Source of the DNA: a virus
Taxonomy: Duplodnaviria > Caudoviricetes
Virus record (IMG/VR): IMGVR_UViG_3300027770_000038
Location: 48,806 to 112,805 of that record
DNA length: 64,000 bases
Direction: 5' to 3' (one strand)
Under the pieces are notes generated by a model. The model ran no database searches. It was not told where the DNA came from and worked only from the letters and a program-made list of their open reading frames with translations. Shown here piece after piece: positions 34,689-62,814 of this stretch (position 1 is the stretch's first letter; each line of letters starts with the position of its first letter). The translations under genes were made by a program, and so were the position numbers.

Positions 34689-34689
34689 A

Positions 34690-42753: not shown

Positions 42754-43581
42754 ATGACAGATGTATTATTTTGTTTTGGTGATGAGTTTATTTATTCTAA
42801 TAATTTAGCGAATTGGTCAACAATAAATCCCGGTCAAGAGATTGAAATAATGGGGAACCTAGAGAAGTTCTCTGTCGTCCGCACAAATGTTATTAATTAC
42901 AATAAAGTCTTTACAGTAGAGTCGAATTCTACAATTAAAATCGATAGCGACATTAAAGATTTAGTTCTGGATGGAGATACTATTGATTGTTATTTTGTTA
43001 CTTATTATACTGTATTAATTAATGAGATTACCGAAGCTGGGTCTGGATATAAAGTAAATGAATATGTTAACATTAATAAAAATGCTTATTTCGATTCTAG
43101 CAACGATAGAAATGAAAGATCTATTCTCCAAGTCAAATCTGTTGATAGTAACGGAGGTATTACTGAACTCCATTTAATAAATAATGGAAAATTCACTCAG
43201 AATTTCGAGCAAGCAGACCTAGATGGCGGCTCTGGCAAGGGAGCGAAAGTAAGCCTAATCCTAGGTAAGCACGACAAAAAGGTTTTAAAATTCTTCTCAG
43301 TATTAAACGTTAAGCGAGAACAGGGTTCTACTTTTGTAGAATTGGATGAAAAAATTAAAGATACCTTCCTTACTGGTGAGATTTATATAAAACGATATCG
43401 CATCACTTTAAATAAACCTACAGGCAAAGAATACTCTAGCCATCCTTTTATTCTTAAAGTAGAGAAGACTCCTTTTTTAAACTTGCCACTAGCCAAAGAT
43501 AACAATATAGAGCAAATCTATAATCAGGCTATACTGACTATAGACTCTAAGATTAAAGAATTATCTACTGGAGTAAAGTAA
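42754..43581 (+). CDS. Hypothetical structural protein
   Basis: 'ITEAGSGY' and 'GGSGKGA' motifs common in virion proteins. Its 3' end overlaps that of the tape measure gene by 21 nt. Confidence 0.5.
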   Translation: MTDVLFCFGDEFIYSNNLANWSTINPGQEIEIMGNLEKFSVVRTNVINYNKVFTVESNSTIKIDSDIKDLVLDGDTIDCYFVTYYTVLINEITEAGSGYKVNEYVNINKNAYFDSSNDRNERSILQVKSVDSNGGITELHLINNGKFTQNFEQADLDGGSGKGAKVSLILGKHDKKVLKFFSVLNVKREQGSTFVELDEKIKDTFLTGEIYIKRYRITLNKPTGKEYSSHPFILKVEKTPFLNLPLAKDNNIEQIYNQAILTIDSKIKELSTGVK

Positions 43582-46500
43582 TCCTCCGGGTCTCTTTTGT
43601 TCGACCAATACTTCAACAACTTTGCTTCTAAGTAACTCAGCAAGTTTGCCATTGTTTTGCATGCTGTTCTGATCGGTTTTGGAATTGGATGCGCCTTTTT
43701 GAGTGCTGGAGTTAGCTTCAGAGGTAACTTCGCCGCCTTGAGACATGTTGATTGAAATATTATTTACTACAGACATGCCAGACTCTTGGGTAGCTCCAGC
43801 AAGAGAAGACCTTCCTGATTCTGATTGAGTTATTCCCGAATCCTTAGATAAGTTATCATTTAAAGTATTCAATGCAGTTACTAATTCATCCATGCTAGAA
43901 GACTGGTCTGTATTACTTTGACCACTATAACTTGTGCCAACCATCCCGCCGCTAGCATATTTAGGAAGAGACCCAGAGTTTAATTGACCCATGAAATCTT
44001 TGCCGTACATATCGACGGCTTTTTTATTCATGACGTATTCGCCGCCCATTAACAAAGCGGGAATATTGTCTTGGCCTGTAGAGCCGCCGCCAGCAAATTT
44101 AGCAATATAACCACCATTAGCTCTGCCATATTTTTTATATTGAGAATTTAATTCAGCCTGACTAAACCCAGAACCTCCGGGTTCTAATCCTGCTCCGGGG
44201 ATATTTGAAGGAGTAGGACTTTTTCTTAAACTCTCTGCACCCGCTGTTAATCCAGCAGCGCCTATTTGAACAGCAGCAGCAGTTAATCCTGAATAGAAAG
44301 TGCTATTTACTTGATTTTTATAGTTTTTAATACTCTGCTTTTTATCTCTCTCATATTGCGCTCGGTCTTGTAAGTATTGATCGAGCTTCTCATAGCGGTC
44401 TTCTCTTAGCTTGTTTTGAGGATTACTGTCGTCAGTTAGGGCTGCGGCTGACAATCTAGAATCAACAGCGTATTCTCCAGAAGTTGGGCGATCAGGATTA
44501 TCGTACAAGAATTCATTTTGTAATGGGCCAATAGAGAATCCTCCAGTTGCATATCTTGGGACGGCTCCACCATTTAAATTTCTTAAATAGTCAGTTCCAT
44601 ATTTATCAACAGAAGATTTCTTAATGACATACTCGCCGCCGCTCATCATCGCGGGCACATCATCTTTCATCCCAGAGCCGCCAGTAACCATACCTCCAGA
44701 ATTATAGCCTTTAATTGGTCCTCCATCTTTTCTACCAGTAGCATAAGCCTTACCAAAAGCAAACAAAGCATCAACCCCCATCTCTAAAGACTTATCAAGC
44801 ATTCTATTTAAGATGCCTTGGAACATGTCTCTAAATGCATCCTTAAGGGTTTTAGTGCCTTTGATAGCTTCGCCAAATGCGCTGCCAATACCAGACTTAA
44901 AATCAGTTTGAAATGTATCAATTAGTTGACCAGTGTCTTTTGCGAAGTCTGCTCTATTGTAAGTGGTATTTTTTTCAGTGATAGCTCCTATATCTACATT
45001 CCCTTGTCGAGCTTCGCTTTCAATTTCAGCATTAGCAAAAGCCGCTCTTTCGTCTTTGAAAAACTTTTTACCATATGCTTTTTTATAATACAAATCGAAA
45101 TTATATTTGGCATTATCATTTTCTACCTGTAAACCTTTTTCTCTTAGCTCAATCTGCTTTTTTAAAAGCCTAGCCTCTTGTTCTGCGTTTTGATTTTTTT
45201 GAGCTAATAAACCTTCAACTTCTTTATTAAGAGCAGCAAGCTCTTCAGCATTACGAGTTCTAATAGCTCCACGCGCATTTACTTGGTTTACGTTCGCTCT
45301 TGTTCTCGCTAGTTCTTCAGGGACTTGCGGGTTTGGTTGACTATTAAATTCATAAAACTTAAATTGTTTTTGTGCATCAGTAGTTGTTTTTTTACCGGAC
45401 ATTAAAGGAGACTCGGCCTCTAAGCTTCTTTGTCTGCGAGAATTTTCTTTTAAAGATTTTAAATCTTCAATAGACATTTGTTGGCCGAATTCTCTAAAGA
45501 TTTGTTTCGCAAGCCCTTCATAAGTGGTAGTTAAATAATCTTGTTTTCCCGGCTCGTTGAACCTATTCATGTCGCCTTTTAAGTTTCCCAAAAGTTGTTC
45601 CAATTGTCTTGTATCCATCCCTTCATATTTGCTGTTTGCTACTGTAGACTTAGCTTCTTTTAATTTAGTTTCTGCTTCATAAGAAATTTGTGCGCTTTTA
45701 CGAGAAGATTGTACAGCCTCTTCTTCTGTTTGATATCTTTGCAAGCCAGTTAAAATTTCATCCATTGCTGTTGGTGGTTGATATATTTGTAGTTCTTTAG
45801 GTTGAATAAGCGGTTGGACCTCTGCTTGCTTAATAGTTTTAAGGCTTTCTAAATAACTTTCTATATCTTTAATCTGTGCTGTCGTTGATAATTTTCTTTC
45901 TATATTATCTATAAATTTTACCTCTTTAGGTAGATTTGTTAAATCTCCTGTTTGATCTATCTTATCAGAAATAGCTCGTCTAATATCAGGGGCCGCAATT
46001 GGTAAAAGATTAGATCTTTCACTCAAAAGAGTCGCCCTTTGCGTGTTTGTAGAAAGTTTATTGATGACTCCTGTTAGAGACCCAGTCAATTCATCTAATT
46101 TAGAACCCACTTGGGTTGTTATAACTTTATTAAAGTTTTCATTTATACTAGTTGGCAAAGCGCTTGCTAAAAGCTCATTTTGTTTTTGAGTTAAATCATT
46201 TAAATATCTCGCCTCTTGTTGAAGGACATCAAGGTAAGTTCCCATATTTTCTAACTTAAATTGAGAAGCAATTTGATCTAAAGCAGTTTTCACTGCGCCT
46301 TGGTTAGCTTGATCAAAAGCTGTACCCAAAGCAGTGCCTTCTGTTGATTTTCCTGTTTGAATTTCAGTAAGATCTTTAGCTAAATTTAAACTATCTCTTA
46401 TTTGCTTCACTCTGCCAGCAATTGCTGTAGCTGCTAATGGATTTAAATCAGAGGAAACTTGTTTATTAAAGCTTTGAGCATTTGCAAATCCAGCAGGAGT

Positions 46501-49500
46501 TTCGGTTCCTCTATTTAACTGTAATTGATTAGTTAATACGTCTAAAAACTTAAAAGAAGTAGATCCCTTTTGAGCGGCACTTCCAATAGCATTAGTTTGT
46601 CTAAATTCTGAAACTAATTCAGAAAGACTATCGAAAAGATCAGATACCCCAGACTTGCCAGTTGAACCCAAAGCTTGGGCACCACCAGCAAAAGAGAGTC
46701 TTTGATTTAAAGCTAATGATTGTTTTTGATATTCTCTAGAAGCTTTTTGTATGTCTAAATCTACATCGCCTTGAGCTTTAATTCTTGCAAGTTCATTTTG
46801 CAATTCGCTAAAAGAACTATCAAGGGACTGTATCAAAAGTTCAGAAGTTTCTTTTGTAAACGCTTTTTCCGGTCCCGTACTTTCTATTATTCGTTTTTTT
46901 AATGACTGTGTTATTGTGGAGACATCTCCTCCTGCATTTACCTGCCTTAATCCTTCGCTAATAAGAGGAGTTAAATTATTTATTTGTTGTTGAAAGACTG
47001 ATCTTTCTTTTTGAATAGCCTTATCATCTCTAGCACCTTCAATAGCTGGTACTATTTTTGACCTAGCTTCTTCAGCTTTTTTAGTAATAGAATCTGAAAG
47101 AGAATCAAGGAACTTACCTGTGGCGTCTCTTATTTGAGAATTTTGTCTTGTATTTATTTCATTGACGTCTAATTGATTTTGGATATCATTTTTCGCTCCT
47201 TCCCCGACAAAAGGAGTAAAAGCGTCTAAAGCACCTTTAACTCTAGCCCTTTGAGTGGAAACCACGCCCTCTGCTTGAATTTTATTAATCTCTCTAATTG
47301 TTTTAGCGCGGTTTTTCTCTATATCTATTTGATTAGATATTTGCAAGTTAATGTCATTATATTGGTTATTTAAAGTCTTAAGAGCTTCAGCATTAGCGAG
47401 AATTCTTTTTGTATTAACGTCAGAAATTTCAGAAAGAATTTTCACTTTTTTTGCACTATCAACGATAGCTAAACTCTGTTTCTGAAGTACATCTATAATA
47501 GATTTTACAGCAGTGACATCTAATTTGCCAAATGCACTATCAAGGATATCCGCGATAGACTCAGTAAGAATACCTTTATTTTTTAATTGAGCCTTTACAT
47601 CTCCTACAGATTGTCTATTTAAAGCTGGCTGTTCTCCGGTCTTTACGCCATAAGAATAAACACTTTGAGTAAATGTAGCTTGTTTTGTTAACTTTTCAAA
47701 AAAACTATTTAAATCTTCCGTAGCTGAGTCTCCTTTGAAATTTTTTGCGACAGATTCTGCGTCTATAGAAGAAGAGAATAAAGCATTTAACGATTTTTGA
47801 TCTTTTCCTGATACTGAAGCGTTTCCAAATATACTAGATGAATCTTTAATAACACTAGAAATAGCCAACTGTCTTTCTAAATTTTTCTGAGTGTTACCTA
47901 ATTCTTTATTAACTCCAGCAATGGCTTCAGAAACTTTAGTTATGTCTGCTCCTGCTTGTAATACTTTATTCCTAAATTCATCAGGAATTGAGCTAAGAGC
48001 CTCTGTTAAATTAGTTTGGAATTTTAATAAGGTTGCTGGTTTAGCTTTAGGATCATTTAAAGCAGATTGCAATCCCTCTAAAGAAGTAGCATAATTTTGA
48101 GCAGCGCCAGAAAAATCGGAAGCTTTTTGTTTAGTTATTTCTAGATTATTATTTATTTTTTCAATAGCTTCTGCTGCTTTGCTTTCTTCCAACTTACGGA
48201 AAAGTTGAACGAGGCCATAAACACCTCCTACAGCCATTCCCGGTAGACCGAATGCTGCTCCTGCGCCTACTGACGAAAGTACATCTCCTATTCCAGAAGC
48301 AGCAGCTTTTGCCGTTCTATTTTCTTTTGGAATAAACTCTGAAACTATATTCGCCAAACTACTTCCTAGGAAACCTACACTTGGACCCATTGTTTTTGAT
48401 AAAGTAGAGAATTTAGATCCTCCTTGAAACATTCCTTTCCCAAAGATAGGATCTTGAGTTCTTTTGAAATTATCTGTAGCTTCTTGTCTTGACGCTCTAG
48501 CTTCTTTTAGTTTAACTGCGGTCTGCTTTCTCTCTTCAGCAAGTTGTTTCCTTAATTCATCTAACCTTGCTACTTGTTCTGCGGATGCGGCTTGAGGAGT
48601 TCTTGATAATTTACGACTCAGTGGGTCCATTGTAAAAGGACCATTTACTAAAGCCCCAGTTGAAGTGCCTGTTAATCTTAATCTTTCGTCTACATTTGTA
48701 AAAGTGCTTTGTATTTCGTTTTGTATGGCTGCTTCTTTTTTTGCTAGACTTTTTGGAATTTCCCCTATTGATTGAGAATAAGAATTAACAGCGCTAATTT
48801 GTTCTTTTTTTACTGCTGCTAGCGAATCTTTAAAGTTTTTAAATTCTCCAGTTATATCTTTAATGGCTGAATAAAACAACATCAAAGCGCCAACACTTAT
48901 AGTAGCATCTACCCCACCAAATTCAGCAAAATTAGGAATATGCCCCTTTGCAGACATACCTTTTGTTTTGGGGTTTATGCCAGCTTTTTCTGCTAATCCA
49001 ATTCCACCATTAAGAGAACCTTCTGTGGAGTTATAAACTCCTAATCCCATTGGATTGAAGCTTGTCTTTAGTTTGCTGCTTTGGCCTACTTTAACTTGAG
49101 AAGAGGAGTATCCAGCGGCCATCTCTCTTCCTATTGCTTCTTGGACTGCATTAAAATTAGGTATATGACCTTTAGAAAAAGTATCAACTAAAGCCTCTAT
49201 TGCGAGATCTCCGTCAATAACGGCATCAATGAAAGACTGTTTATCATTTTTATAAAGATCTTTAATTTTGCCTTGAACCAAAGATAAAATATTTTTACCA
49301 AAAATCTCCTCTTCTTCCATGCGCCCAACATAGTTACGATTTGAAAATTTTAAATTTGTGCTTTTAGACAACCCTTTTTGTCTATAAGACAATTGAGGAT
49401 AAGCTATTTTAACTATATCTTCTATTGAAGTTTCTTCTAAAACATAATGCTTTTCTTTATCTTTGTCTCTTAAAAGAGCATATTGTTTTTGAGGAATGAC

Positions 49501-52500
49501 TCTCTTTAATTTGTCACCTTGAGGTACAATAACAGAAGAGTAAGAATTGACTCCTAGTCGTTTGGCGGTTTTTGAATATCGATCAAACATCTCTTGACCT
49601 TGACCCTTTTGATTAGATTCAATGTAGCTGATTTTTAAACCCTTTTCGTAACTACCTGTATTTGGATTGACAAAATTTCCGGGATAGTAATCCAAAATGC
49701 TTCCTGTTTCAGGATCAGTTAATGTTCTAAAATTATTCTTTTTATCATTTTCATATTGCTTTCTTTTCTTTAATTTATAAGCAAAATTAGGAACATGACC
49801 TTTAGAGAAAGTATCATATAACTCACTTATATAAATCTTACGCGCTTCGACATCTTTTACGAATTCTGGTACATCAGATCCATATATGCCAGTTAATTTA
49901 TCTAATATTGAAGAAAATATTTTTTTTCCAGTAAGAGTTTCCATTTCAAATGGACTTTTTTCAGTAGACGTTTTCATGAACTTCACACTTGAATCTTTAC
50001 TTATACCTCTTTCTCTGTACATTAACTGAGGATAAGATATTTTTAGAGCATCTCTAAGAGAGAGACCTTCAAGAATATGACGATTTTTCTTTTGGTATTC
50101 ATTTAAAAGATCATATTTTTCTTTGGGAACAATTTTATTTGTTTGTGGGAGAATTATACTGGAATAAGACCTACGTCCCGAACGCCTAGCTATTTTTCCA
50201 TATCGATCAAACATTTCATGACCTTGCCCTTTCTCATAAGAGTTAATAAAACCAAATTTTAAAACTTTTTCTGAGTCAACTACTCCGGGGGTATACTCTA
50301 AATAACTTCCTGTCTTTTTATCATGAATCTGTCTCTTCGAAGCGGATCTATTGAATCCCGGTTTAGATACTGCATAAGAAAAATTAGGGACATATCCATT
50401 AGAAAATAATCCCACTTCATATTCGCTCTTATAAATTGAATTATCAAAAATATCATTGAAGTCAAGCCCCATGCCCCTTCCTCCTCCGCTTTTGCTTTGT
50501 CTAAACATGACTTCTTTGACTTTTCTTTCGCCATATTTACGGTATAGGTCGTCATAAAGAGTCTCGTCACCTAAAAGTCTAGAATCGTTTACCATCATAC
50601 CAGAAGTTGCTCCAGAACGTCCGGCAAATTCCCTAGCCACTGATGGCCTTTTAGAGGTAGAAATAATAGGTAAACTACGGTCATATCCATAACCATACAT
50701 AAGTCTATAATTCCTCATGGCGGTTGGATGCAAAAGATCTTTTTTTTCTAAAGGATTACCTATATGGGTTGTGGCTAAATTTTTAAAAGAGGTTCCTATA
50801 AAAGATTCTTTAGGATTATATTCGGGTATTTGATTGGCGTAATCTGCTTGTGAGAATACAGCCTTTCTGACAGCGTTAGGATCGTTTCTGTCTATAGACC
50901 TCCATCTTTCCGAAGTCGCCTCTACGCCTCTATATAAAGCCGTTTTCCCTTTGTCTTTTTTAGGATTAGCAAGAACTGGGTGTGGAGATTTAGTAGTCGC
51001 CGCATTACGTTTATTTATATTAATTATAGCTCTTAATATCTCTATATCTTGATTTGCGAAATTAGGGACATATCCTTTAGAGAAAGTATCTTGTAAATCG
51101 TTTATACCTATATTTTTATGTAAAATCTCTTGGATTAAAGTATCTTTATTATTCCCGTAAACATCTTTTAATTTATTTTGTACTTGAGAGAGGATATCTT
51201 TACCAGAAAGGTCTTCGTATTTTAAAAATCCAGCATAATCGCGATAGTTTAGTGATAGTTTTGTGTTTTTAGACAAACCTCTTTGTCTGTAAGCCAACTG
51301 AGGATATGCCATTTTAACAATATCTTCAAACGAAGTGTCTTCAAGTATAGAATAATTTTTTATCTCGTCTGCGCTTAGTTTTTCCTTTAAATAACCATAT
51401 TTTTCTTTAGGAATTATTTTCCCTACTCTATCACCTTGTTCTACGAGGAGATCAGAAAAACCTTTAAGTTTTTGTCTCCTAGCCATTTTTGAAAACCTAT
51501 CAAACATCTCTTGGCCTTGACCTGTCTGCTTGGATCTAATATAGCTGACATTTAAAGATCTTTCTTGAGATTTTGTTTCTTTATTATAAAAATCTCCGGG
51601 ATAATATCTTAAATAACTTCCTGTTTCAGGATCTGTTAATTCTCTAGTAGATGTTTTACTATATACTGGTTTGTTTATTCTATAAGCGAAATTAGGAATG
51701 AAACCAGAAGCTAAATTTGGCAAAGATCCGGGAACAAAATCTGGCAATCTTGCCCTTAAAGCATTCAAGAAAGCTCCTGCTCTTGCTCCTCTATTTTGTC
51801 TAGAAACAAAACCTTGTTGACCTCTAACAGGAATACCAGCTACAGCATTTGGATTCTCAAGACTAGAAAAGAATGCCCCAGAATCACGATTCAAAGAAGC
51901 TAGTCTTTCCAAAGTTCCTGTGCTTGCCATTTCGGGGTCGAAGTATTTGTCAGCGAGCCAATCTCTTAACTTGGGAGAAATTTGGGCTGTTTTTTCTCCT
52001 AGGCTTGAAAATCTAAAATTAAAAGGCTTTGGAGCGAAATTAGGAATAAAACCAGAAGAATTGGTTTTAAGTCCGCTAGTAACGCTACCTGCTTTAATTT
52101 CTTGCTCTTTAAAGTGATTTCCTATCTGTTGACCATATTGTTTCGTGACTTTATCAATAAATGATCTTATAGCTTCATCATTATTTTTTAATTTATAATC
52201 TCCATATTGGTCTGTAAATCCGGGGAAAAGCTCTCTTACATTTGCAATACTTCCGCCTCTTACGTCAAAATCTCCTCCAGAATCAGCTTTATCTCTTGTA
52301 TAATTACCAGCTAAATTTGTAGAAGCTTCAAATATTGTACCAGCTAATACATTATAATTTTTACCTGCTGCTCCAAAAAAATTATCAACAGAAGTGTCTG
52401 AATATTCTCCGGGTCTAATGTAATTAGCAAGATCTTTAGTCATTTTACGAGAAAAATCTTGTGTTTTTTGAATTAGTCCAGTTTTTTCTTCATTTAAGGC

Positions 52501-54963
52501 TGAAGCATTTAGAGCATAAGATTTAATCTTAAAAATTCTTCCAGAAGTTTTTCTTTTAGTGGACATCTCTCCTGTTTTTTCCAAATCATCTTCATTGACA
52601 TCCCTCTCTGAACTCTTTTGCATTGCGTCAAAGACAAGCATTGAAGCGGGGGGAATATAAGGATCATAAACTTGTTTTATTCCTTCTTTAATCTTTTGTT
52701 CAGCTTCTATTTTTTTTCCGGGAGCGTAAGTAGCTCTAATATCATCCAAACCAAAAATTGTACCATCTGGTTTTCTTTTACCATATCTTTTATCGCTCAT
52801 CAAAATAGAAGCTGGCATTTCTGCTCTTATTTCTCCGTATTTCGCTCCTGCTCTTACAAAGTGATTTAAATCATTCCCTGTAAACGGCGCACCATCTTTT
52901 CTATAAAATCTTTCACCTTTCGGTCTAGATGGATCAAAAGCAGCCTCATATTTAGGGTCAAGTCTAATTTGAGCAAGAGGAACTGGATCACGACTTGCTC
53001 TGCGAAGCCATTCATTATCTCCATATCCATAAGCATCATTTTCTAATGGCATAGGACCAAAATTAGGCACAAAGCCTCTAGCCATATAAGGATTAATTCC
53101 ATTCTTCGCCATTGACTTTGAAGCCAAAGATTGTGCTGCGCGAGAACCTTCAGGAGGCAATATATAAGGTTGAGCAAAGCCGGGAATATATTTAACTTTT
53201 TCGGCAGTGTTCATCACGCCGCCAATTGATTTGGGGGCAGCAACTACTTTACCGGGAGTATAACCCCCTTGCATTGCTCCAACTTTTTCTGCGGCTTGTT
53301 GCTGGGCAGGAATAAATCCACCCGCAGAAACTCTTCCTTTGCTTTTGAATTGACCTTCTTGATCTATCACTACTCCAGAGACTATCATTCTCTTGGCTTG
53401 ACTCTCTGTAATATTTACAATAGTTTTAGCGAGAGCCGCTTGTTCGTATAATGTTTGTCTTATTTCTTTTTCTACTTGTAAACGAGTCTTGGTGCCAGAA
53501 AGTATTTGTTGAATTAGTTCTGGATTAGAAGAGAGGATTTTGCTAATCTCTCCTTGGAGAACAGCTTGTTGCCTACCAACGCTATTTAATCCCAAAATAT
53601 TTTTAGTAGCATCTCCAGCAAATTTAGTAAAATTACTTAGCAATTTCCCGACAGCAAGCCCACCAAGTAGCAAACCGGGGCCAGTGATAAAATCGGTAAT
53701 GCCTGTTAATAAACCAGTAGCTATCTTTGCCCCAACGCCTTCTGAATCTTTTTCATTGTAAGCGGATAAACTTTTGTTGACAGACTCTAAAACTTTTCTT
53801 ATTCCGGGAGCGACACTAGCATTTCCAATGGCTGAAGCAAATTGACTGAAATTAGCTGATGTTTCATTAATTAAAGCAGAAAGACTTTTATTTAAAGCAT
53901 CATTTTTTAAGATAGCTTCATCTGCTGCTTGAGAAGAGGCTCTTGTAGCTTCTGCGAAAGCGGAATTTTGTTTAGAAACGTCTGCCAAAGCAGCTTTTAA
54001 AATGTTGATCTGATAAACACCACCAACAAGTTCAGCAACTTGAGATTTGACAACTGGATTTAAACTTTGGAAAGACTGAGCTAAGTTTTCAATTACCTTA
54101 ATTGTCGGCAAAACATTTCCAGAAATATCAGTAACAGTAATACCAAAATCTTTCAAATCATTAATGACTTGAGGTCTTTCTATTCTTGTGAAAATTGTTT
54201 TTAAGGCGTTACCAATTACAGCACCACCACGGGCAGTAGTTTGCTGTACAGAAGTAACAATACCTAGCAATTCATCAAAACTAACTCCAGCTTCGCTGGC
54301 AGAAGATCCTACACGCTGGAGAGCTTCAGAAAGGTCTCTGGAGCTAACAGCGAATTTAGCATCAACAGCAGCAAGTTTATTAACGACATCAGTTGTAGTA
54401 AGAGCTTCTTTAGTAAATGAATTTACAGCAGCGGTAAGAGCTTCAGTACTTGAAACTACATCAAGACCAGAAAGGCGAGTTAAGATTAGAGCATCTCTTG
54501 TTCTCCTTAAAGTCTCTTCTAATCCTAAACCTTGTCTTGAAAACTCTGTTGCGGCAGCAGCTACGTCTTTAAAGGAAGAACCTGTACTTCTTGCTACTTC
54601 AAACAACTGATCTCCAAATTGCTTTATCCCTTTAGCAGAAGTGTTTAATACAATATTGATATCAATAAGAGACTTTTCTACTTCGATAGTACTGGTTACA
54701 AGAGCAGAAAAAGACTTTTGAACTGCAAAAATAACACCAGCAGAAGCACCGAATGCAACTACACGGGCATTTGAAGCTTCTAAAGATTTGTTAAACTCAT
54801 TAGCAAGGCCAGTAATTTTACCCAGAGGCTGAGTGAAATTTCTCGTATTTAAATTAAGTGTGCTTTTGCTTTGGATACGAGTTAACGCTGATAACACATC
54901 TTTTTCAAGCTGTGCTGCGTTAAATGTTGCTGTAATTGGAATTGATCCTGCTGATGTAGCCAT
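43561..54963 (-). CDS. Tail tape measure protein (3800 aa) with internal motif-delimited enzyme-like cassettes
   Basis: N-terminal TP901-type core ('EFSRQG', 'FAVSSRDLSEAL', 'GAVIGNALKTIFTRI'), long helical regions, C-terminal 'D.VPAM..GGEYV' repeats. Lies after the tail tube and chaperone genes. Confidence 0.92.
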   Translation of the reverse strand: MATSAGSIPITATFNAAQLEKDVLSALTRIQSKSTLNLNTRNFTQPLGKITGLANEFNKSLEASNARVVAFGASAGVIFAVQKSFSALVTSTIEVEKSLIDINIVLNTSAKGIKQFGDQLFEVARSTGSSFKDVAAAATEFSRQGLGLEETLRRTRDALILTRLSGLDVVSSTEALTAAVNSFTKEALTTTDVVNKLAAVDAKFAVSSRDLSEALQRVGSSASEAGVSFDELLGIVTSVQQTTARGGAVIGNALKTIFTRIERPQVINDLKDFGITVTDISGNVLPTIKVIENLAQSFQSLNPVVKSQVAELVGGVYQINILKAALADVSKQNSAFAEATRASSQAADEAILKNDALNKSLSALINETSANFSQFASAIGNASVAPGIRKVLESVNKSLSAYNEKDSEGVGAKIATGLLTGITDFITGPGLLLGGLAVGKLLSNFTKFAGDATKNILGLNSVGRQQAVLQGEISKILSSNPELIQQILSGTKTRLQVEKEIRQTLYEQAALAKTIVNITESQAKRMIVSGVVIDQEGQFKSKGRVSAGGFIPAQQQAAEKVGAMQGGYTPGKVVAAPKSIGGVMNTAEKVKYIPGFAQPYILPPEGSRAAQSLASKSMAKNGINPYMARGFVPNFGPMPLENDAYGYGDNEWLRRASRDPVPLAQIRLDPKYEAAFDPSRPKGERFYRKDGAPFTGNDLNHFVRAGAKYGEIRAEMPASILMSDKRYGKRKPDGTIFGLDDIRATYAPGKKIEAEQKIKEGIKQVYDPYIPPASMLVFDAMQKSSERDVNEDDLEKTGEMSTKRKTSGRIFKIKSYALNASALNEEKTGLIQKTQDFSRKMTKDLANYIRPGEYSDTSVDNFFGAAGKNYNVLAGTIFEASTNLAGNYTRDKADSGGDFDVRGGSIANVRELFPGFTDQYGDYKLKNNDEAIRSFIDKVTKQYGQQIGNHFKEQEIKAGSVTSGLKTNSSGFIPNFAPKPFNFRFSSLGEKTAQISPKLRDWLADKYFDPEMASTGTLERLASLNRDSGAFFSSLENPNAVAGIPVRGQQGFVSRQNRGARAGAFLNALRARLPDFVPGSLPNLASGFIPNFAYRINKPVYSKTSTRELTDPETGSYLRYYPGDFYNKETKSQERSLNVSYIRSKQTGQGQEMFDRFSKMARRQKLKGFSDLLVEQGDRVGKIIPKEKYGYLKEKLSADEIKNYSILEDTSFEDIVKMAYPQLAYRQRGLSKNTKLSLNYRDYAGFLKYEDLSGKDILSQVQNKLKDVYGNNKDTLIQEILHKNIGINDLQDTFSKGYVPNFANQDIEILRAIININKRNAATTKSPHPVLANPKKDKGKTALYRGVEATSERWRSIDRNDPNAVRKAVFSQADYANQIPEYNPKESFIGTSFKNLATTHIGNPLEKKDLLHPTAMRNYRLMYGYGYDRSLPIISTSKRPSVAREFAGRSGATSGMMVNDSRLLGDETLYDDLYRKYGERKVKEVMFRQSKSGGGRGMGLDFNDIFDNSIYKSEYEVGLFSNGYVPNFSYAVSKPGFNRSASKRQIHDKKTGSYLEYTPGVVDSEKVLKFGFINSYEKGQGHEMFDRYGKIARRSGRRSYSSIILPQTNKIVPKEKYDLLNEYQKKNRHILEGLSLRDALKISYPQLMYRERGISKDSSVKFMKTSTEKSPFEMETLTGKKIFSSILDKLTGIYGSDVPEFVKDVEARKIYISELYDTFSKGHVPNFAYKLKKRKQYENDKKNNFRTLTDPETGSILDYYPGNFVNPNTGSYEKGLKISYIESNQKGQGQEMFDRYSKTAKRLGVNSYSSVIVPQGDKLKRVIPQKQYALLRDKDKEKHYVLEETSIEDIVKIAYPQLSYRQKGLSKSTNLKFSNRNYVGRMEEEEIFGKNILSLVQGKIKDLYKNDKQSFIDAVIDGDLAIEALVDTFSKGHIPNFNAVQEAIGREMAAGYSSSQVKVGQSSKLKTSFNPMGLGVYNSTEGSLNGGIGLAEKAGINPKTKGMSAKGHIPNFAEFGGVDATISVGALMLFYSAIKDITGEFKNFKDSLAAVKKEQISAVNSYSQSIGEIPKSLAKKEAAIQNEIQSTFTNVDERLRLTGTSTGALVNGPFTMDPLSRKLSRTPQAASAEQVARLDELRKQLAEERKQTAVKLKEARASRQEATDNFKRTQDPIFGKGMFQGGSKFSTLSKTMGPSVGFLGSSLANIVSEFIPKENRTAKAAASGIGDVLSSVGAGAAFGLPGMAVGGVYGLVQLFRKLEESKAAEAIEKINNNLEITKQKASDFSGAAQNYATSLEGLQSALNDPKAKPATLLKFQTNLTEALSSIPDEFRNKVLQAGADITKVSEAIAGVNKELGNTQKNLERQLAISSVIKDSSSIFGNASVSGKDQKSLNALFSSSIDAESVAKNFKGDSATEDLNSFFEKLTKQATFTQSVYSYGVKTGEQPALNRQSVGDVKAQLKNKGILTESIADILDSAFGKLDVTAVKSIIDVLQKQSLAIVDSAKKVKILSEISDVNTKRILANAEALKTLNNQYNDINLQISNQIDIEKNRAKTIREINKIQAEGVVSTQRARVKGALDAFTPFVGEGAKNDIQNQLDVNEINTRQNSQIRDATGKFLDSLSDSITKKAEEARSKIVPAIEGARDDKAIQKERSVFQQQINNLTPLISEGLRQVNAGGDVSTITQSLKKRIIESTGPEKAFTKETSELLIQSLDSSFSELQNELARIKAQGDVDLDIQKASREYQKQSLALNQRLSFAGGAQALGSTGKSGVSDLFDSLSELVSEFRQTNAIGSAAQKGSTSFKFLDVLTNQLQLNRGTETPAGFANAQSFNKQVSSDLNPLAATAIAGRVKQIRDSLNLAKDLTEIQTGKSTEGTALGTAFDQANQGAVKTALDQIASQFKLENMGTYLDVLQQEARYLNDLTQKQNELLASALPTSINENFNKVITTQVGSKLDELTGSLTGVINKLSTNTQRATLLSERSNLLPIAAPDIRRAISDKIDQTGDLTNLPKEVKFIDNIERKLSTTAQIKDIESYLESLKTIKQAEVQPLIQPKELQIYQPPTAMDEILTGLQRYQTEEEAVQSSRKSAQISYEAETKLKEAKSTVANSKYEGMDTRQLEQLLGNLKGDMNRFNEPGKQDYLTTTYEGLAKQIFREFGQQMSIEDLKSLKENSRRQRSLEAESPLMSGKKTTTDAQKQFKFYEFNSQPNPQVPEELARTRANVNQVNARGAIRTRNAEELAALNKEVEGLLAQKNQNAEQEARLLKKQIELREKGLQVENDNAKYNFDLYYKKAYGKKFFKDERAAFANAEIESEARQGNVDIGAITEKNTTYNRADFAKDTGQLIDTFQTDFKSGIGSAFGEAIKGTKTLKDAFRDMFQGILNRMLDKSLEMGVDALFAFGKAYATGRKDGGPIKGYNSGGMVTGGSGMKDDVPAMMSGGEYVIKKSSVDKYGTDYLRNLNGGAVPRYATGGFSIGPLQNEFLYDNPDRPTSGEYAVDSRLSAAALTDDSNPQNKLREDRYEKLDQYLQDRAQYERDKKQSIKNYKNQVNSTFYSGLTAAAVQIGAAGLTAGAESLRKSPTPSNIPGAGLEPGGSGFSQAELNSQYKKYGRANGGYIAKFAGGGSTGQDNIPALLMGGEYVMNKKAVDMYGKDFMGQLNSGSLPKYASGGMVGTSYSGQSNTDQSSSMDELVTALNTLNDNLSKDSGITQSESGRSSLAGATQESGMSVVNNISINMSQGGEVTSEANSSTQKGASNSKTDQNSMQNNGKLAELLRSKVVEVLVEQKRPGGLLYSSR
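48925..53076 (-). repeat. Eight dispersed copies of the peptide motif G[FYH][IV]PNF[AGSN] in the tape measure protein
   Basis: Copies at 53056-53076, 52033-52053, 51685-51705, 51055-51075, 50377-50397, 49780-49800, 49150-49170 and 48925-48945. All share the DNA core CCTAATTT on the coding strand. Confidence 0.95.
49171..51684 (-). repeat. Three paralogous ~200-aa GNAT-like domains inside the tape measure protein
   Basis: Units at 51076-51684, 49801-50376 and 49171-49779 share 'D..TGS.L.Y.PG', 'I.S...GQG.EMFDR..K.A.R', 'YPQL.YR..G.SK' and 'DTFSKG'. Confidence 0.9.
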
Positions 54964-54991: not shown

Positions 54992-56008
54992 TTAAACACC
55001 GTGTAACTTCATTAAATCTTCAAAGCTTAATGAGCCACCTTTTTTCTTCGCCGCATCTTCCAAAGAAACACTTCCAGTGTTGTCTTGTTTTAATTTCTTT
55101 AGGTCTTCCTTTGTGGCTCCCATGACAGAAACGGCTTGGACAGCAGTCTCTTTACCGTTAGTCATGTTCTTATCTTCGTGTAATTTTTCAAGATTGCTAC
55201 TAGACTCATACCAATCTATAATCTTGTCTACATTATCATTATACTCATCAGGGTGCTTAACTGTAGACTTGCCCATTAAATCTTTAAAGTACCTTGCATA
55301 ACCAAATAGCTCGACCTGATAAAATGTTAAATTGCAAATAGGTTTGCCATAGAAGAAATAAGCATTGTCATCACATAAATAAAAATAATTAAGGAAAAAT
55401 CCGCTAACCCCAATTCTTTTTACGTTATGATTATTAAATTTATGAGCAGACTTAGAATAAGAACTAACTAATCTAAATAACTCATTTTGATCTAGTTCTT
55501 CAAATTCTTCTAATGTAAAAGCGTGATTTTGGCAATTTTCGTCAGAGTAAACCGAATAATAAATGTAAAACTCATTCATCCGTTTACCAGTGTATGTTTC
55601 GCAAGTGTTTTCTAACAAATCATTTTTCTTAGTCTCTAGCAGACTTGTTTCTTCATTAATTTCTTTTATTTGTTTGTCAATGTTATCAAGGTCTCTAGTT
55701 AAATAAAGCTTGCGTCTAGTCTTGTTTAAATTGGCAAGGGTTAATCTATTGTTTATTATTTTCTGATCGTCTTTTTCGTCATAGATTTTTTCTTTAATAA
55801 GTTCTTTTATCTTTTCTTCATTTGTGGGTATGCCTTGTGATCTAGCTTTTTCGTAATAGTGATTTTCGCGCACTTCGATCTCTCCTGCATCTTTTGGAGA
55901 CATGTGCTTTATATAATACTGATTATTGTTACAGAGAAAAGAAGATGAGCCCTTTACTATTTCCCAATAAAGAGATTTTAAATTTTTATTAAAAGCTTCT
56001 AGATCCAT
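54992..56008 (-). CDS. Putative tail assembly chaperone (GT-like)
   Basis: Immediately upstream of the tape measure gene. The N-terminal two-thirds is similar to 56062-56802, followed by an extra C-terminal domain ('HPDEYNDNVDKIIDWY'). Confidence 0.55.
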   Translation of the reverse strand: MDLEAFNKNLKSLYWEIVKGSSSFLCNNNQYYIKHMSPKDAGEIEVRENHYYEKARSQGIPTNEEKIKELIKEKIYDEKDDQKIINNRLTLANLNKTRRKLYLTRDLDNIDKQIKEINEETSLLETKKNDLLENTCETYTGKRMNEFYIYYSVYSDENCQNHAFTLEEFEELDQNELFRLVSSYSKSAHKFNNHNVKRIGVSGFFLNYFYLCDDNAYFFYGKPICNLTFYQVELFGYARYFKDLMGKSTVKHPDEYNDNVDKIIDWYESSSNLEKLHEDKNMTNGKETAVQAVSVMGATKEDLKKLKQDNTGSVSLEDAAKKKGGSLSFEDLMKLHGV

Positions 56009-56013
56009 ATGCT

Positions 56014-56039
56014 AAAAAGCCCCCGCTCGCGCAGGGGCT
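56014..56039 (-). terminator. Intrinsic terminator between the two chaperone genes
   Basis: On -: AGCCCCTGC-GCGA-GCGGGGGCT-TTTT (GC stem, GNRA loop, short U tract). Confidence 0.75.
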
Positions 56040-56061
56040 AGGATTAATTTACGCCAAGGGA

Positions 56062-56802
56062 TCAAAAAATCTTTTGTTCTATTTTTAACAAATCGAAATC
56101 TTCCTTTGATGTTGCTCTTCCGATGTACCAGAAGCTAATAAAATAAATAAAAGCATTAGCTACTTTAATCATATGAGGGTCTTCTGATTCAAAAATTTCG
56201 TCATACTTATTCATTCGAGCTTCGTAATTTCCTTCACCAAAAAATGGTTGTTTTTCCCCGTTTTTCTCATAGTATGACAAAAATAATATCCACCAAGTTA
56301 TTACTTTATTACGAGCCCTTGTCTCTGCGGTATTATCAAACAGAGATTCTTTTTGGACTTCTAGATCAGTCAAAGAGCTTTTAATAATAGTAATTTTTTC
56401 TTCTAATTCTTTCTTCTTGGTTTCAAAATACTCTGGACGATCCTTCTCTTCTAAAGCCAGAAGCCTCTGTAATTCATTTTGAGAATCATACAGGTCTTTA
56501 TAAGCATCTGCTTCGGCACCTTTAGCTTTATCCCCTAAAATACCGCCATCATCGACGTATCTTTTATTTAACAAAGATCGGGTAAGGAGGCCAGCTTTAA
56601 CGCCTTCAGAAAGCCTAACTCCATAAAATAATTCAGCTTCGTCAAACAAAACTCTTGTGGGTTTCTTAATAAAGTAATTATGAGGAACTTGAGATACAAC
56701 ATCTTTGGTAATAGTTACCTTTTGTCCTTCTTCGTTTACCGACTCTTCTGTTTCTTTTACAAGCCCTTCTTTATTAATTGCAAATTCGTATGTAGTCTTC
56801 AT
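56062..56802 (-). CDS. Putative tail assembly chaperone (G-like)
   Basis: Lies between the tail tube and tape measure genes. Charged and helical. Paralog of the downstream gene. Confidence 0.55.
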   Translation of the reverse strand: MKTTYEFAINKEGLVKETEESVNEEGQKVTITKDVVSQVPHNYFIKKPTRVLFDEAELFYGVRLSEGVKAGLLTRSLLNKRYVDDGGILGDKAKGAEADAYKDLYDSQNELQRLLALEEKDRPEYFETKKKELEEKITIIKSSLTDLEVQKESLFDNTAETRARNKVITWWILFLSYYEKNGEKQPFFGEGNYEARMNKYDEIFESEDPHMIKVANAFIYFISFWYIGRATSKEDFDLLKIEQKIF

Positions 56803-57020
56803 TATAAATTTATATTATTTAGATCTTCTTCAAAATTTCTGATGCTATCGTTGCCGCTGTCTAGTATTTTCTTTCTTAGACGTTGGTACTTTTCATCATT
56901 AATATTATAACCATCTTCCTTTAAATCTTCAAGTAAGATTAAGAAGTTTTTATATAAATTTACGACTTGTCGCCTATTCTTAAATAGGACGTACTCTTTT
57001 AGCTTAATATCTATTGCCAT
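56802..57020 (-). CDS. Small hypothetical protein
   Basis: 72-aa ORF with AAAGG upstream, TAATG-coupled to the next gene. Confidence 0.7.
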   Translation of the reverse strand: MAIDIKLKEYVLFKNRRQVVNLYKNFLILLEDLKEDGYNINDEKYQRLRKKILDSGNDSIRNFEEDLNNINL

Positions 57021-57048
57021 ATAACCTTTGAAAAACCTTTACCTAATG

Positions 57049-57058
57049 GTATTTACAC
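57049..57058 (-). promoter_or_regulatory. GTGTAA-type candidate late promoter
   Basis: GTGTAAATAC just downstream of a terminator and upstream of the ATG at 57020. Confidence 0.6.
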
Positions 57059-57069
57059 TCTGTAAAAAT

Positions 57070-57098
57070 AAAAAGCCCCAGTTTTTAGGCTGGGGCTT
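57070..57098 (-). terminator. Intrinsic terminator after the major tail tube gene
   Basis: On -: AAGCCCCAG-CCTAAAAA-CTGGGGCTT-TTT. Confidence 0.85.
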
Positions 57099-57117
57099 AG
57101 TGCGATTATTTTAAATA

Positions 57118-58299
57118 TTATGCAAGAGGCAATGTTTCAAACATGAACATTCCTCTATCGGTTTGTTGAGGAGAACCAACTTGAGTAGTGAAGTTTAGTG
57201 TTACTGATTTATTAGCGCCAATTGAAGAAGAGATATCTTGAGAATCTAGGTTCAATCTCTTGAGGACATATCCAACGCCTTCATTAGTAGCCAAAGTAGT
57301 ATTAGCACTAGCAGGAGCGGCCAAGACGACGACAGCGTCATAAGTGGCGTCATTATTTATTACGTCAACAAGATTTCCAGTAGTAAGATCTTGGACTAGA
57401 GCATTGACGCTGAAAGAAATAGTAACTGGGAAATCGATTTCTCTAGAAAAAGCGTATTTACTACCGAGTTTTTGCAATGGAGTTCTATTTAAACCCATTG
57501 AGATAGAGAAATTTTGGATAGCGGCAGCAGCAGTAACATCAGTACCACCATAAGCTGTTCCAGTTGTTTTTGTTAGAGTGAGGGTAATGTCACCATGTCT
57601 TAGCGCTGAGACTCTGCCTAATGCGTTTTCACCATTAGGATTTGTAGCGGTCTGTGGCAAAGCGAAGGTTCCACCAGCGACTGCTCCAGCACTAGTTACA
57701 CCGGGAGTGTTTCCTGAATTTCCAGCAGTAAAATTCATGTTTAGGCACTCAACAGTAGAAGAAACAGTTGGGAAATCTCCTACGGCAGCATTTACGCTAT
57801 AATTAGTTAAGAAACCGTTCCCTAAGCCAATTGTATTTCCTTGAGTGGTATTTGGAGCAGAATCGGATGAAAATGCAGAAGCATCATTACCTTCATTAAC
57901 TGTCCTAACGTAATAATTTTTAGTATTTACAAATCCACTAGTTAAAATTCCTGATAAACAAGATTGAACAGCATTTGCAGAAGTAATGCCAGCGGTAGTA
58001 GTTTGACTTGTTATAACAGAAAAGCCTAAATTCTTTTCATTAGCCATATCTGAAAGTAGATATGAAAAATCTAGACCAACAGTTGGTTGCTCTACGATAA
58101 TACGATCAATAGCAGCAAGATTGCCGAATTGATTGACATCTTTTCTTGCAATATTAAAATTATAATTGCAAGATTGAACGCGAGAAAACTGGTTAACAAA
58201 TAAAGCTCCAGTTTGTGATGGTGTAGAAGCCGCTACGTCAACAAGGTCACTTGTATTGAATAACGCTTCTGATTGGTAAATTACACGATTTCTTGGCAT
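57118..58299 (-). CDS. Major tail tube protein (internally duplicated fold)
   Basis: Ser/Thr/Gly/Ala beta-rich protein upstream of the chaperones and tape measure gene, with its own promoter motif, RBS and terminator. Two similar halves ('RVQSCNYNFNIARKDVNQFG' and 'AIQNFSISMGLNRTPLQKLG'). Confidence 0.75.
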   Translation of the reverse strand: MPRNRVIYQSEALFNTSDLVDVAASTPSQTGALFVNQFSRVQSCNYNFNIARKDVNQFGNLAAIDRIIVEQPTVGLDFSYLLSDMANEKNLGFSVITSQTTTAGITSANAVQSCLSGILTSGFVNTKNYYVRTVNEGNDASAFSSDSAPNTTQGNTIGLGNGFLTNYSVNAAVGDFPTVSSTVECLNMNFTAGNSGNTPGVTSAGAVAGGTFALPQTATNPNGENALGRVSALRHGDITLTLTKTTGTAYGGTDVTAAAAIQNFSISMGLNRTPLQKLGSKYAFSREIDFPVTISFSVNALVQDLTTGNLVDVINNDATYDAVVVLAAPASANTTLATNEGVGYVLKRLNLDSQDISSSIGANKSVTLNFTTQVGSPQQTDRGMFMFETLPLA

Positions 58300-58325
58300 A
58301 TTTTTAATCCTTTAAAATTCTATTC

Positions 58326-58335
58326 ATTATTACAT
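58326..58335 (-). promoter_or_regulatory. Candidate late promoter (variant ATGTAATAAT)
   Basis: In the intergenic gap, upstream of an AAGGA RBS and the ATG at 58299. Confidence 0.55.
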
Positions 58336-58359
58336 TTTTTATTCAGTTTTGAGAAATAA

Positions 58360-60021: not shown

Positions 60022-60027
60022 AAAATA

Positions 60028-60876
60028 TTATGTTTGTCTTGGTTGTCTAAACTTGATCAGTTCAAAATCAATCAGCCCATAATATGAGCTAGGATTTAGA
60101 TTGCTCTCTATATCTCTTACACTCGCGACTTTAGAGACAGAAACACTATCTATCATGCAGTAGTCTTTTCCAGATGTTAAAGAATCATAATTAAAGACTA
60201 TTCCACTTTTAAAACTTCCTAATACATTAAAAGGATTATAAGTTGCGTCAATTAAAGGAACATTATCGTAATTTCTATCTCTGAATAAAGAACAAACTGC
60301 ATCTAATGTATATTGAGAATCGGCGATCACGATTGCTCGGAAATCCATTTTGGTTTTGTCAGTGCCGCCAAAAGCCCAAGGGTCATTTGTGCTGCTATTA
60401 TTTTTAATGAAAACCACAGGATAAGTGATAGTATTTTCTTTAAGACTTGACTTTAAAGACTCTGTTGAGGTCTTATTTCTTCTGACGTATTGAGTCTCAA
60501 AAAGCAAAACCTCTTCTGGCTGAGAGGTTAATAATACATTAAATTCTTTAACTGAGTAAGCCCCTGAAACAGTAAGAGACCCAGAAGCTAAATAGATTTG
60601 CCCTTCTGAATAATTAATACCGCTAACTGGGTTTTGACCTAAATTATAATTTACTCCACCAATACTAACCCCAGTCATTACTGTAGCGCCAGATATAGAA
60701 GTATCATAAACTAATCCTTTATAAGGTCCATTGTATGCATAGAACCCATTGACGTAAGATGAGTTGGCAGGAAAAGCACTTGTGACATTATAATAAGCCT
60801 CGCCTTTAGACAATAAAGTATGGTCAAACCACATTAGGAACGAAGAAGATATTTGGTTATCAAATTGGGGTTTCAT
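60028..60876 (-). CDS. Putative tail terminator/completion protein
   Basis: Directly upstream of the tube genes. The 'YPVVFIK...PWAFGG...FRAIVIADS..LD' pattern is typical of tail terminators. Confidence 0.5.
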   Translation of the reverse strand: MKPQFDNQISSSFLMWFDHTLLSKGEAYYNVTSAFPANSSYVNGFYAYNGPYKGLVYDTSISGATVMTGVSIGGVNYNLGQNPVSGINYSEGQIYLASGSLTVSGAYSVKEFNVLLTSQPEEVLLFETQYVRRNKTSTESLKSSLKENTITYPVVFIKNNSSTNDPWAFGGTDKTKMDFRAIVIADSQYTLDAVCSLFRDRNYDNVPLIDATYNPFNVLGSFKSGIVFNYDSLTSGKDYCMIDSVSVSKVASVRDIESNLNPSSYYGLIDFELIKFRQPRQT

Positions 60877-61927: not shown

Positions 61928-61929
61928 AA

Positions 61930-62424: not shown

Positions 62425-62425
62425 A

Positions 62426-62800: not shown

Positions 62801-62804
62801 ACAC

Positions 62805-62814
62805 ATTATTACAC
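62805..62814 (-). promoter_or_regulatory. GTGTAA-type candidate late promoter
   Basis: GTGTAATAAT immediately after the terminator U tract. Confidence 0.6.

Follow-up and report, generated by a model that had tools for sequence, protein, structure and literature searches.

Tape measure proteins (TMPs) leave the tail first at infection in model siphophages, and the entry of protein, not only DNA, by long-tailed phages is known for few cases only. T5 pb2 and the TMP of mycobacteriophage TM4 are said to contain embedded wall-degrading domains that are used at entry, and T4 packages the ADP-ribosyltransferase (ART) Alt in its virion and injects it with the DNA. Among toxins, the MARTX proteins are built from translocation flanks and a central effector array that varies by recombination, with the effectors freed in the target cell by the toxin's own cysteine protease. 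The TMP analyzed here is encoded in a stretch of 64,000 nucleotides (nt) from a virus of the Caudoviricetes (the window; positions 48,806 to 112,805 of IMG/VR record IMGVR_UViG_3300027770_000038), and was found to be divided by eight copies of a short peptide, G[FYH][IV]PNF (the joint), into blocks that resemble enzymes (cassettes); by this reading of the sequence, the tail is probably the vehicle by which a changeable set of enzymes reaches the host. In polyvalent proteins, which are of giant size, domains of the ART, GNAT, nuclease and other conflict types are joined in one chain; these proteins were proposed to accompany the DNA into the host and there to be cut up into active parts (Iyer, Burroughs, Anand, de Souza and Aravind 2017, PMC5512222); in the portion of that paper available, they are head- or conjugation-associated and processed by embedded zincin-like MPTase peptidases that are pervasive in the class, and the term 'tape measure' occurs 0 times. 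Thermus phage P23-45 gp96 is a 5,002-amino acid (aa) TMP whose N-terminal part is a virion RNA polymerase (RNAP) transcribing pre-early genes (PMC10770324); in the available portion of that text, no word starting with 'proteoly' occurs and 'cleav' is used only for tag removal.

By analogy, the closest known kinds are the polyvalent proteins in concept, the P23-45 TMP-RNAP as an experimental case and the MARTX toxins in function. T4 Alt is a separate capsid-internal protein, whereas the putative ART of the window lies within the TMP; the likeness is that of an ART ready-made at infection, and no sequence match between the two was found. MARTX toxins are secreted bacterial proteins unrelated in sequence to the TMP, in which no counterpart of their cysteine protease domain was found. 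T5 pb2 and the TM4 TMP reportedly carry single, periplasm-acting lytic domains; the window TMP, in contrast, holds multiple exchangeable cassettes whose predicted cofactors are cytoplasmic. Like polyvalent proteins, the window TMP joins several unrelated conflict-type domains (an ART, three GNATs and two unassigned, all predicted) in one open reading frame (ORF). Unlike polyvalent proteins as described in the available portion of PMC5512222, the carrier is a TMP, no peptidase domain was found in it, and a single invariant joint both parts the domains and marks the place where cassettes swap. P23-45 gp96 shares the fusion of a TMP to a cytoplasm-acting enzyme and is the experimental precedent, being active before phage gene expression; it differs in having one fixed N-terminal enzyme, and neither a repeated joint nor an array nor exchange is described for it in the portion of PMC10770324 available. 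An earlier note on this DNA had known of no description of the arrangement. No motif-delimited cassette array in a TMP was found in the literature searched, where the supplementary lists of PMC5512222 could hold TMP-like examples, and the motif strings occurred in one unrelated full-text paper only; enzyme-fused TMPs as such, however, are already in print, the P23-45 TMP-RNAP among them (PMC10770324, available portion). What this window adds is a predicted ART cassette as a repeat-flanked indel, a link between the GNAT family and AcrVA5, homologous anchor units with a cassette-free relative, and a negative control in ordinary prophage TMPs.

The TMP was identified by its match to PF10145 (PhageMin_Tail) at aa 122-311 (E 4.7e-30; 105.4 bits against a curated cut-off of 33.2), with nothing else credible in Pfam for the rest of its 3800 aa. 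Thirteen PHROG families annotated as TMP matched its N-terminal 400-1000 residues and aa 3307-3491, and PF10145 was also matched by 16/16 diverse relatives. As the earlier note had held, the ORF product is by these homologies a TMP, of the TP901 type. A regular-expression scan placed G[FYH][IV]PNF at aa 630, 971, 1087, 1297, 1523, 1722, 1932 and 2007, recovering all eight positions that had been claimed, and a degenerate GGFIPA at aa 549 (nt 53319); the last motif ends at nt 48928, so that the range 48925-53319 given by the earlier note encloses the whole series. The blocks between the eight motifs measured 335, 110, 204, 220, 193, 204 and 69 aa, the succession reported before, with each earlier figure one residue lower by counting convention. 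Eight copies were observed against 0.0002 expected from the TMP's own composition, a six-frame scan of the window met no copy outside the TMP's own frame, and none was present in the 210,131 bases that surround the TMP genes at 21 related loci. Six Bacillota prophage TMPs from the same scan (22-29% identity) had 0 joints; the joint is therefore not a general TMP feature and is specific to this lineage. Three of the motifs (DTFSKG[YH][IV]PNF) go with the three paralogous GNAT blocks and are thus not independent of duplication; the other five lie in unrelated sequence.

Relatives were collected by a search of 5.8 billion proteins with aa 556-2012, in which 44 TMP-length proteins were listed, one being the window's own; 43 of the 44 carried 2-14 strict motifs and the remaining one (P0045) carried 0. 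A HMMER search of 1.84 billion representatives with aa 630-1727 returned 24 proteins at E <= 0.001, nearly all of TMP length, the short ones carrying the motif and looking like fragments. Cutting 64 proteins at the joint yielded 294 blocks in 99 families. Enclosed by an N-terminal core and a C-terminal part that both stay constant, relatives carried anything from no cassette to more than 20. In the close clade the N core up to the first motif measured 627-631 aa and the C part 1780-1793 aa, with an array of 684-1383 aa between them, so the variable cargo between conserved flanks that had been suggested as a check was indeed found. The order of the window array is F2-F3-GNAT-ART-GNAT-GNAT-anchor (F-numbers denote block families), and the five closest relatives (P0003, P0004, L001, L003 and L004) have the same order minus the ART, which is removed exactly from motif to motif. 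Other relatives swap the middle of the array for a 570-aa block or for blocks of 275, 312 or 224 aa. The 570-aa cassette (L002:12435-14144 and L005:6071-7780) gave weak matches to GHKL ATPases just below the cut-off (HATPase_c_3, E 3.7e-5; HATPase_c, E 6.2e-5) and to the C-terminal domain of Staphylococcus phage G1 gp67 (E 0.0064). The largest array seen, in P0025 (5251 aa), has 14 strict and 10 loose joints, 24 in all, over 3375 aa and includes ART-family and GNAT-family cassettes. Beyond the TMP domain, Pfam recognized almost nothing in the 16 diverse relatives. Two loci had short TMP frames (L030, 1034 aa; L042, 363 aa) with 5 and 4 joints distributed across frames, which could reflect frameshifts, assembly errors or recoding. 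An assembly artefact as the source of the architecture was rejected because an identical protein (P0002) was present in another collection and the architecture recurs in dozens of independent contigs.

Exchange was followed at the DNA level. Homology between the window and L001/L003 ran to gene nt 3905 and resumed at gene nt 4558, inside motifs 4 and 5, the coding DNA of which shares 17/18 nt; because the breaks fall inside these near-identical motifs, the ART cassette is an indel between 17-nt direct repeats. This fits the earlier suggestion that a shared DNA core aids cassette shuffling. Against L002, L005 and L021, homology ended at aa 977-981 and resumed at aa 1929, again at joints. Among related phages, cassettes are added, dropped, exchanged for others and put in a new order through recombination at the DNA that codes for the joint. 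All homology breaks mapped to motif DNA, and the Pro codon CCT was over-used in the joint (32/41, against 37% in the rest of the genes). Together with the 17-nt repeat, these observations speak for a reading in which the joint is a DNA-level recombination hook and its peptide has no function, the cassettes being passengers, or length or antigenic variation where host sensors recognize the TMP. We hold that account to be very improbable. All four Gly codons and all four Pro codons were used in the joint, synonymous variation was present at every codon, and the peptide was conserved, which places selection mainly on the peptide; catalytic triads and the GNAT core were also conserved across cassette families, arguing for a selected enzymatic function.

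The joint itself was aligned over 263 non-redundant contexts from proteins down to ~25% overall identity, and gave a nine-residue consensus, [AS]-x-G-[FYH]-[IV]-P-N-F-[A], with G at 100%, P at 100%, N at 97%, F at 91%, A/S at 89% (position -2) and A at 62% (position +6). Outside these positions the flanks were not conserved. In the GNAT model (below) the distance from a motif to the first strand, and from the last strand to the following motif, is 3 residues each. The ART cassette is 220 residues long and has its invariant catalytic Glu, E214, a few residues short of the following motif. Motif positions thus coincide with domain boundaries, as had been claimed, and since the folds start and end within ~3 residues of it, the joint is essentially the whole inter-domain linker. 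From its sequence the joint appears to be under selection at the protein level, most likely as a handling signal common to all cassettes. Two candidate functions were rejected: intein-like cassettes, because the joint Asn is followed by Phe, which is not a nucleophile, and because the folds are GNAT and ART rather than HINT; and a prepilin-peptidase (G|F) or signal-peptidase (A-x-G|) site, because the required neighboring hydrophobic segment is missing.

At both ends the array is bounded by related units. The block before motif 8 belongs to F0, the largest block family (53 members), which closes nearly every array; the earlier note had taken this 69-aa block for a linker, and it proved instead to be a conserved unit homologous to the segment before motif 1. 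The first and terminal anchor units could be aligned with 14 invariant columns across 11 sequences drawn from both positions (G1, P4, G20, G42, N47, E50, G51, I57, G71, A74 and G-x-x-PNF). As judged from this alignment, the cassette array is inserted between two copies of one ~75-aa unit, each consisting of joint, ~70 aa and joint. On a 182-kb viral contig, a 2147-aa TMP (L015:9842-16282; 45% identity in the N core) was found with a single anchor unit, one joint and no cassette, and looks like the natural empty state of the rack. Prediction of a trimer from three copies of the terminal anchor unit scored 0.00 against a mark of 0.42 with the unit's own fold uncertain, a result that counts neither for nor against self-association. 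The presence of a joint-bearing anchor unit in a TMP without cassettes indicates that the joint predates its cargo. It is also in keeping with a rival account of the joint as a docking or assembly signal, not a cut site, which would engage a repeated partner (the tail assembly chaperone, say, or the inner tube wall) and hold the neighboring cassette unfolded and in register while the tail is assembled; cassettes would stay tethered and, once ejected, work as a membrane-anchored multi-enzyme. Peptide ligands are typically short linear motifs whose flanks are not conserved, as the joint is; the TMP yielded no protease domain, the hydrophobic segments at aa 425-443 and 2016-2034 bracket the array and could anchor it as a loop, and the enzyme fused to the P23-45 TMP is described without mention of release in the portion of the paper available (PMC10770324). 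No partner was found, however, the genes upstream of the TMP matching no family, and an enzyme kept on its tether would reach only targets close to the point of entry; we regard docking as doubtful, if a serious contender.

Cassettes 3, 5 and 6 were assigned on one model and a family alignment. The model of cassette 6 (AlphaFold2; pLDDT 91.1, pTM 0.85) had a mixed alpha/beta fold, and all 50 listed VIA-align rows for it were GNAT-type entries (Z 6.7-8.3) spanning residues 1-204. Top Foldseek rows were also GNATs but weak (best E 0.029). In GNATs, acetyl-CoA pyrophosphate is bound by a (Q/R)xxGxG/A motif that precedes a long helix; the corresponding loop reads QKGQGQ, QTGQGQ and EKGQGH in the three window copies. 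In the family alignment (A2; the three window blocks and ten homologous blocks from other TMPs, 13 sequences) the first Gly of this loop, G60, was invariant in 13/13 and G-x-G was kept in 11/13, the two other rows having Ala or Met at the second position. As modeled, cassettes 3, 5 and 6 are GNAT-fold acetyltransferase-like domains, in agreement with the three GNAT-like calls of the earlier note. None of the 13 members matched a GNAT family of Pfam at E up to 1; one of the 16 whole relatives matched Acetyltransf_1 (E 3.5e-4). Searched for free-standing proteins of 90-357 aa, the GNAT profile found only 1, on a 1.2-kb contig and probably a fragment. Against PDB sequences the same profile had a single solved match below E 0.01, 6iuf_A (E 1.6e-4; profile positions 23-83 of 172), and in VIA-align chain 6iuf_B aligned with the model over 92/95 residues (Z 7.5, rmsd 3.0). 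PDB 6IUF is AcrVA5 (PMC11021501), which acts by acetylation of Cas12a according to the available part of PMC13728456. AcrVA5 is a 92-aa GNAT anti-CRISPR, whereas the window cassettes are ~200 aa with an inserted helical region and are similar to it in the GNAT core only.

Cassette 4 was assigned chiefly by its residues. Members of the R-S-E clade of ARTs are defined by a catalytic Arg, a Ser-Thr-Ser strand and the Glu of (E/Q)xE, in this order. In an alignment of aa 1303-1522 with eight homologous blocks (A1; 9 sequences), R43 (LYRG), S133 (the first Ser of ISTS) and E214 (the second Glu of EYE) were invariant in 9/9 and in R-S-E order; only seven columns were invariant, three of them the triad, and ExE was present in 6/9 members, the other three keeping the second Glu only. 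The model (pLDDT 77.6) was alpha/beta with a disordered insert (residues 101-128 below 50). Its best VIA-align matches were TccC3HVR (Z 5.3; 121 aligned, rmsd 4.3) and TreX (Z 5.2), below Z 8 and hence at a level common for unrelated models, so the ART assignment rests mainly on the triad. About 30 of the 50 listed rows were, as judged from the entries and their titles, ART-fold proteins, and the best Foldseek row, the TccC3 ART domain, was weak (E 0.41). Profile matching to the PDB gave 2kxi_A, an uncharacterized protein (E 0.0036). The STS strand met ExoT both there (E 0.53) and in a single-sequence search (E 0.89). No ART family of Pfam was matched by the nine members at E up to 1, and a scan of viral contigs with the ART cassette yielded 26 pattern matches, none of them a relative. 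With the triad invariant and the fold matches weak yet consistently of ART type, the earlier ART call is upheld as that of a putative, divergent R-S-E clade ADP-ribosyltransferase. Separately, the ART model weakly resembled (Z 3.1) part of 9k3a_B, a chain of the cyanophage A4 pre-ejectosome, a hint that short-tailed phages, too, may have an ART-like domain in one of their ejection proteins.

Among the remaining cassettes, the first (family F2) had E244, D265, D287-x-K289 and K303 invariant in 6/6 sequences down to 16% identity. PD-(D/E)xK nucleases combine a restriction-endonuclease-like fold with a conserved triad of E, D and (D/E)xK, and the residue pattern of cassette 1 resembles this signature. 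By this pattern cassette 1 may be taken as a candidate for the nuclease-like block of the earlier note; the call drew no support from Pfam, from the PDB profile search (only YhaM, E 0.34) or from the Atlas (best score 0.76). Cassette 2 had no Pfam match. The blocks are globular and not coiled-coil, as had been proposed: the GNAT and ART models were alpha/beta, aromatic residues made up 10.5% of the array (N core 4.7%, C part 6.1%) and proline 4.8% (N core 1.5%, C part 2.5%). Foldseek viral rows naming polyvalent or ART proteins were at E 0.25 or worse and were not used as evidence.

Taken with the exchange of cassettes, these assignments suggest, at somewhat better than even confidence, that the TMP doubles as a cargo rack whose exchangeable enzyme-like cassettes are carried into the host. 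ARTs need NAD+ and GNATs need acetyl-CoA, both cytoplasmic cofactors; on this ground the cytoplasm is the probable place of action of the cassettes, with targets in host takeover or defence. Because TMPs exit first, and given the cytoplasmic cofactors and the P23-45 TMP-RNAP as precedent, the cassettes are most likely ready-made effectors that reach the host ahead of phage gene expression. In the proposed sequence of events, cassettes would travel with the TMP ahead of the DNA, non-native inside the tube, and refold in the host. The following observations weigh against this reading. The tail tube lumen measures ~4 nm, in which three chains of folded ~200-aa domains cannot sit natively, so that non-native transport must be assumed. 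No peptidase family was found in the TMP (Pfam, E up to 1) or in the 16 diverse relatives (E up to 0.01). The window's cassettes matched no Pfam family at E up to 1, and Foldseek (PDB, BFVD) gave no match at E <= 0.001 for the GNAT or the ART model. ART fold matches (Z <= 5.3) were below the level that is common for unrelated models, and the similarity to AcrVA5 covers the GNAT core only and is silent on the target. Cassette families are almost without free-standing homologues (the 24 HMMER matches among 1.84 billion being nearly all of TMP size, with the one short GNAT match), and cassettes are therefore not obviously recruited from known anti-defence genes.

Release of the cassettes would follow from cleavage at the joint, the weakest step of the mechanism. 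Cleavage is the leading reading of the joint's role, with docking to a chaperone or to the tube lumen as its main alternative, and is adopted tentatively, with confidence well short of even. A divergent peptidase may be present among the unassigned blocks. In a stronger form of this reading the nine-residue joint would be a self-sufficient, portable release-and-loading signal, so that any domain placed between two joints would be packed unfolded, ejected ahead of the DNA and freed at the joint. Release could then come about by attack of the near-invariant Asn on its own peptide bond, by analogy with the asparagine-lyase cleavage of capsid maturation, or by a tail-tip peptidase such as the JAB/NlpC-P60 gpK homologues encoded nearby; we consider that form unlikely.

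The length of the array bears on where the cassettes would act. With 0.15 nm per residue, 700 aa correspond to a difference of ~100 nm in tail length, so close relatives must have tails that differ by up to ~100 nm, unless something less than the whole TMP sets tail length. A two-fold variation of the array in an otherwise constant TMP fits a fixed tail length better if the array is removed, as it would be if the cassettes acted in the producing cell or on the virion, acetylating or ADP-ribosylating phage or host proteins late in infection, and were then perhaps trimmed at the joint, ahead of tail assembly or in its course, to leave a mature ruler of ~2,400 aa. NAD+ and acetyl-CoA are available in the producer cytoplasm, and lambda gpH and T5 pb2 reportedly mature by proteolysis. 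That course of events appears quite improbable to us: it leaves unexplained why the enzymes are fused to the TMP and not encoded separately, and the array is in the middle of the protein, where its removal would split the ruler in two.

Hydrophobic segments were called as Kyte-Doolittle windows of 19 residues at or above 1.4. Gly-rich segments of this kind lie inside the N core (aa 425-443) and in the C part (aa 2228-2255), in addition to that just past the last motif, and composition and hydropathy give the TMP, which is located in a tail gene module, a C-terminal part that is long and helical. A major-tail-protein-like gene is at 62858-63715 of the window. Converging on the TMP gene from the opposite strand, 30774-42051 (+) holds a lambda-like tail-tip operon with homologues of M, L, K, K, I and J (the J homologue is 2453 aa). 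The first gpK-like paralogue matched Prok-JAB (E 6.5e-10) and NlpC/P60 (E 3.2e-8), and the second matched NlpC/P60 just below the cut-off; these two, at 32457-33215 and 33209-33955, are the only predicted peptidases near the TMP and are candidates for processing it, as a lead only. No sheath gene was seen among the window genes scanned, which together with the TMP and the lambda-like tail-tip genes points to a phage with a long tail and a tip of the lambda type. Of the nine consecutive ORFs (126-553 aa; 54992-62806 (-)) that separate the TMP gene from that of the major-tail-like protein, none had a Pfam match above noise and only 1 matched a PHROG (phrog_1084, function not known); the usual tail-assembly-chaperone pair was not recognizable among them by Pfam or PHROGs, and for want of a useful family match no chaperone or protease candidate can be named there. 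A second tail-like gene set was noted at 22486-30716 (-). In it, 29898-30716 matched Phage_tube_2 (E 4.2e-6), 27998-29077 encodes a protein with a TIG domain, and the ORF of 1836 aa at 22486-27996 met no PHROG. Annotated phage records returned no match by tblastn of aa 549-2013 or by megablast of 20 kb. Ten of the 23 closer genome-contig relatives (L022-L044) were in Flavobacteriales-type metagenome-assembled genomes, consistent with the window's G+C of ~35%; this is a weak host hint, and because binning of phage contigs is unreliable no host is claimed. Coordinates of all features of the TMP gene are given in Table 1.

Table 1. Features of the TMP gene in the window (coordinates are those of the window; aa positions are those of the TMP)
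Feature	aa	Coordinates	Strand	Remarks
TMP gene, P0001		43561..54963	(-)	3800 aa, single ORF
Conserved N-terminal TMP core	1-548	53320..54963	(-)	77-94% DNA identity to relatives
First anchor unit	549-635	53059..53319	(-)	degenerate GFIPA, ~75-aa block and motif 1 (GFVPNF)
Cassette 1, family F2	636-970	52054..53058	(-)	335 aa; first cassette in 22 blocks
Motif 2, GFIPNF	971	52036..52053	(-)	homology to L002/L005/L021 breaks within ~10 codons
Cassette 2, family F3	977-1086	51706..52035	(-)	110 aa; ends in degenerate GSLPNL just before motif 3
Motif 3, GFIPNF	1087	51688..51705	(-)	
Cassette 3, GNAT-fold copy 1 (predicted), family F1	1093-1296	51076..51687	(-)	50% identical to copy 3
Motif 4, GYVPNF	1297	51058..51075	(-)	DNA GGATATGTCCCTAATTT; forms, as the left copy, the 17-nt direct repeat around the ART cassette
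Cassette 4, putative divergent R-S-E ADP-ribosyltransferase, family F4	1303-1522	50398..51057	(-)	invariant triad
Motif 5, GYVPNF	1523	50380..50397	(-)	right copy of the 17-nt direct repeat
Cassette 5, GNAT-fold copy 2 (predicted)	1529-1721	49801..50379	(-)	41% identical to copy 3
Motif 6, GHVPNF	1722	49783..49800	(-)	
Cassette 6, GNAT-fold copy 3 (predicted)	1728-1931	49171..49782	(-)	modeled copy
Motif 7, GHIPNF	1932	49153..49170	(-)	homology to L002/L005/L021 resumes at aa ~1929
Terminal anchor unit	1938-2012	48928..49152	(-)	69-aa block of family F0 and motif 8 (GHIPNF)
Conserved C-terminal part	2013-3800	43561..48927	(-)	1788 aa; rich in A/E/K/Q/L; TMP-type C-terminal repeats
Hydrophobic segment	2016-2034	48862..48918	(-)	starts 4 residues past the last motif; Kyte-Doolittle

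An uncultured aquatic phage lineage thus appears to use its tail ruler as a rack for exchangeable enzymes, and one peptide makes the cargo findable in sequence data. If delivery is true, the ~99 cassette families would be a catalogue of first-strike host-takeover or anti-defence activities, almost none of them known to Pfam, and the catalogue would include an AcrVA5-like acetyltransferase family and a divergent ADP-ribosyltransferase. In laboratory phage-bacterium systems the joint would also be a candidate means of placing proteins of choice in phage tails. If the joint is in addition a portable signal, siphophages would have a natural plug-and-play system of protein injection with ~100 cargo families, several of which would likely be new anti-defence enzymes.

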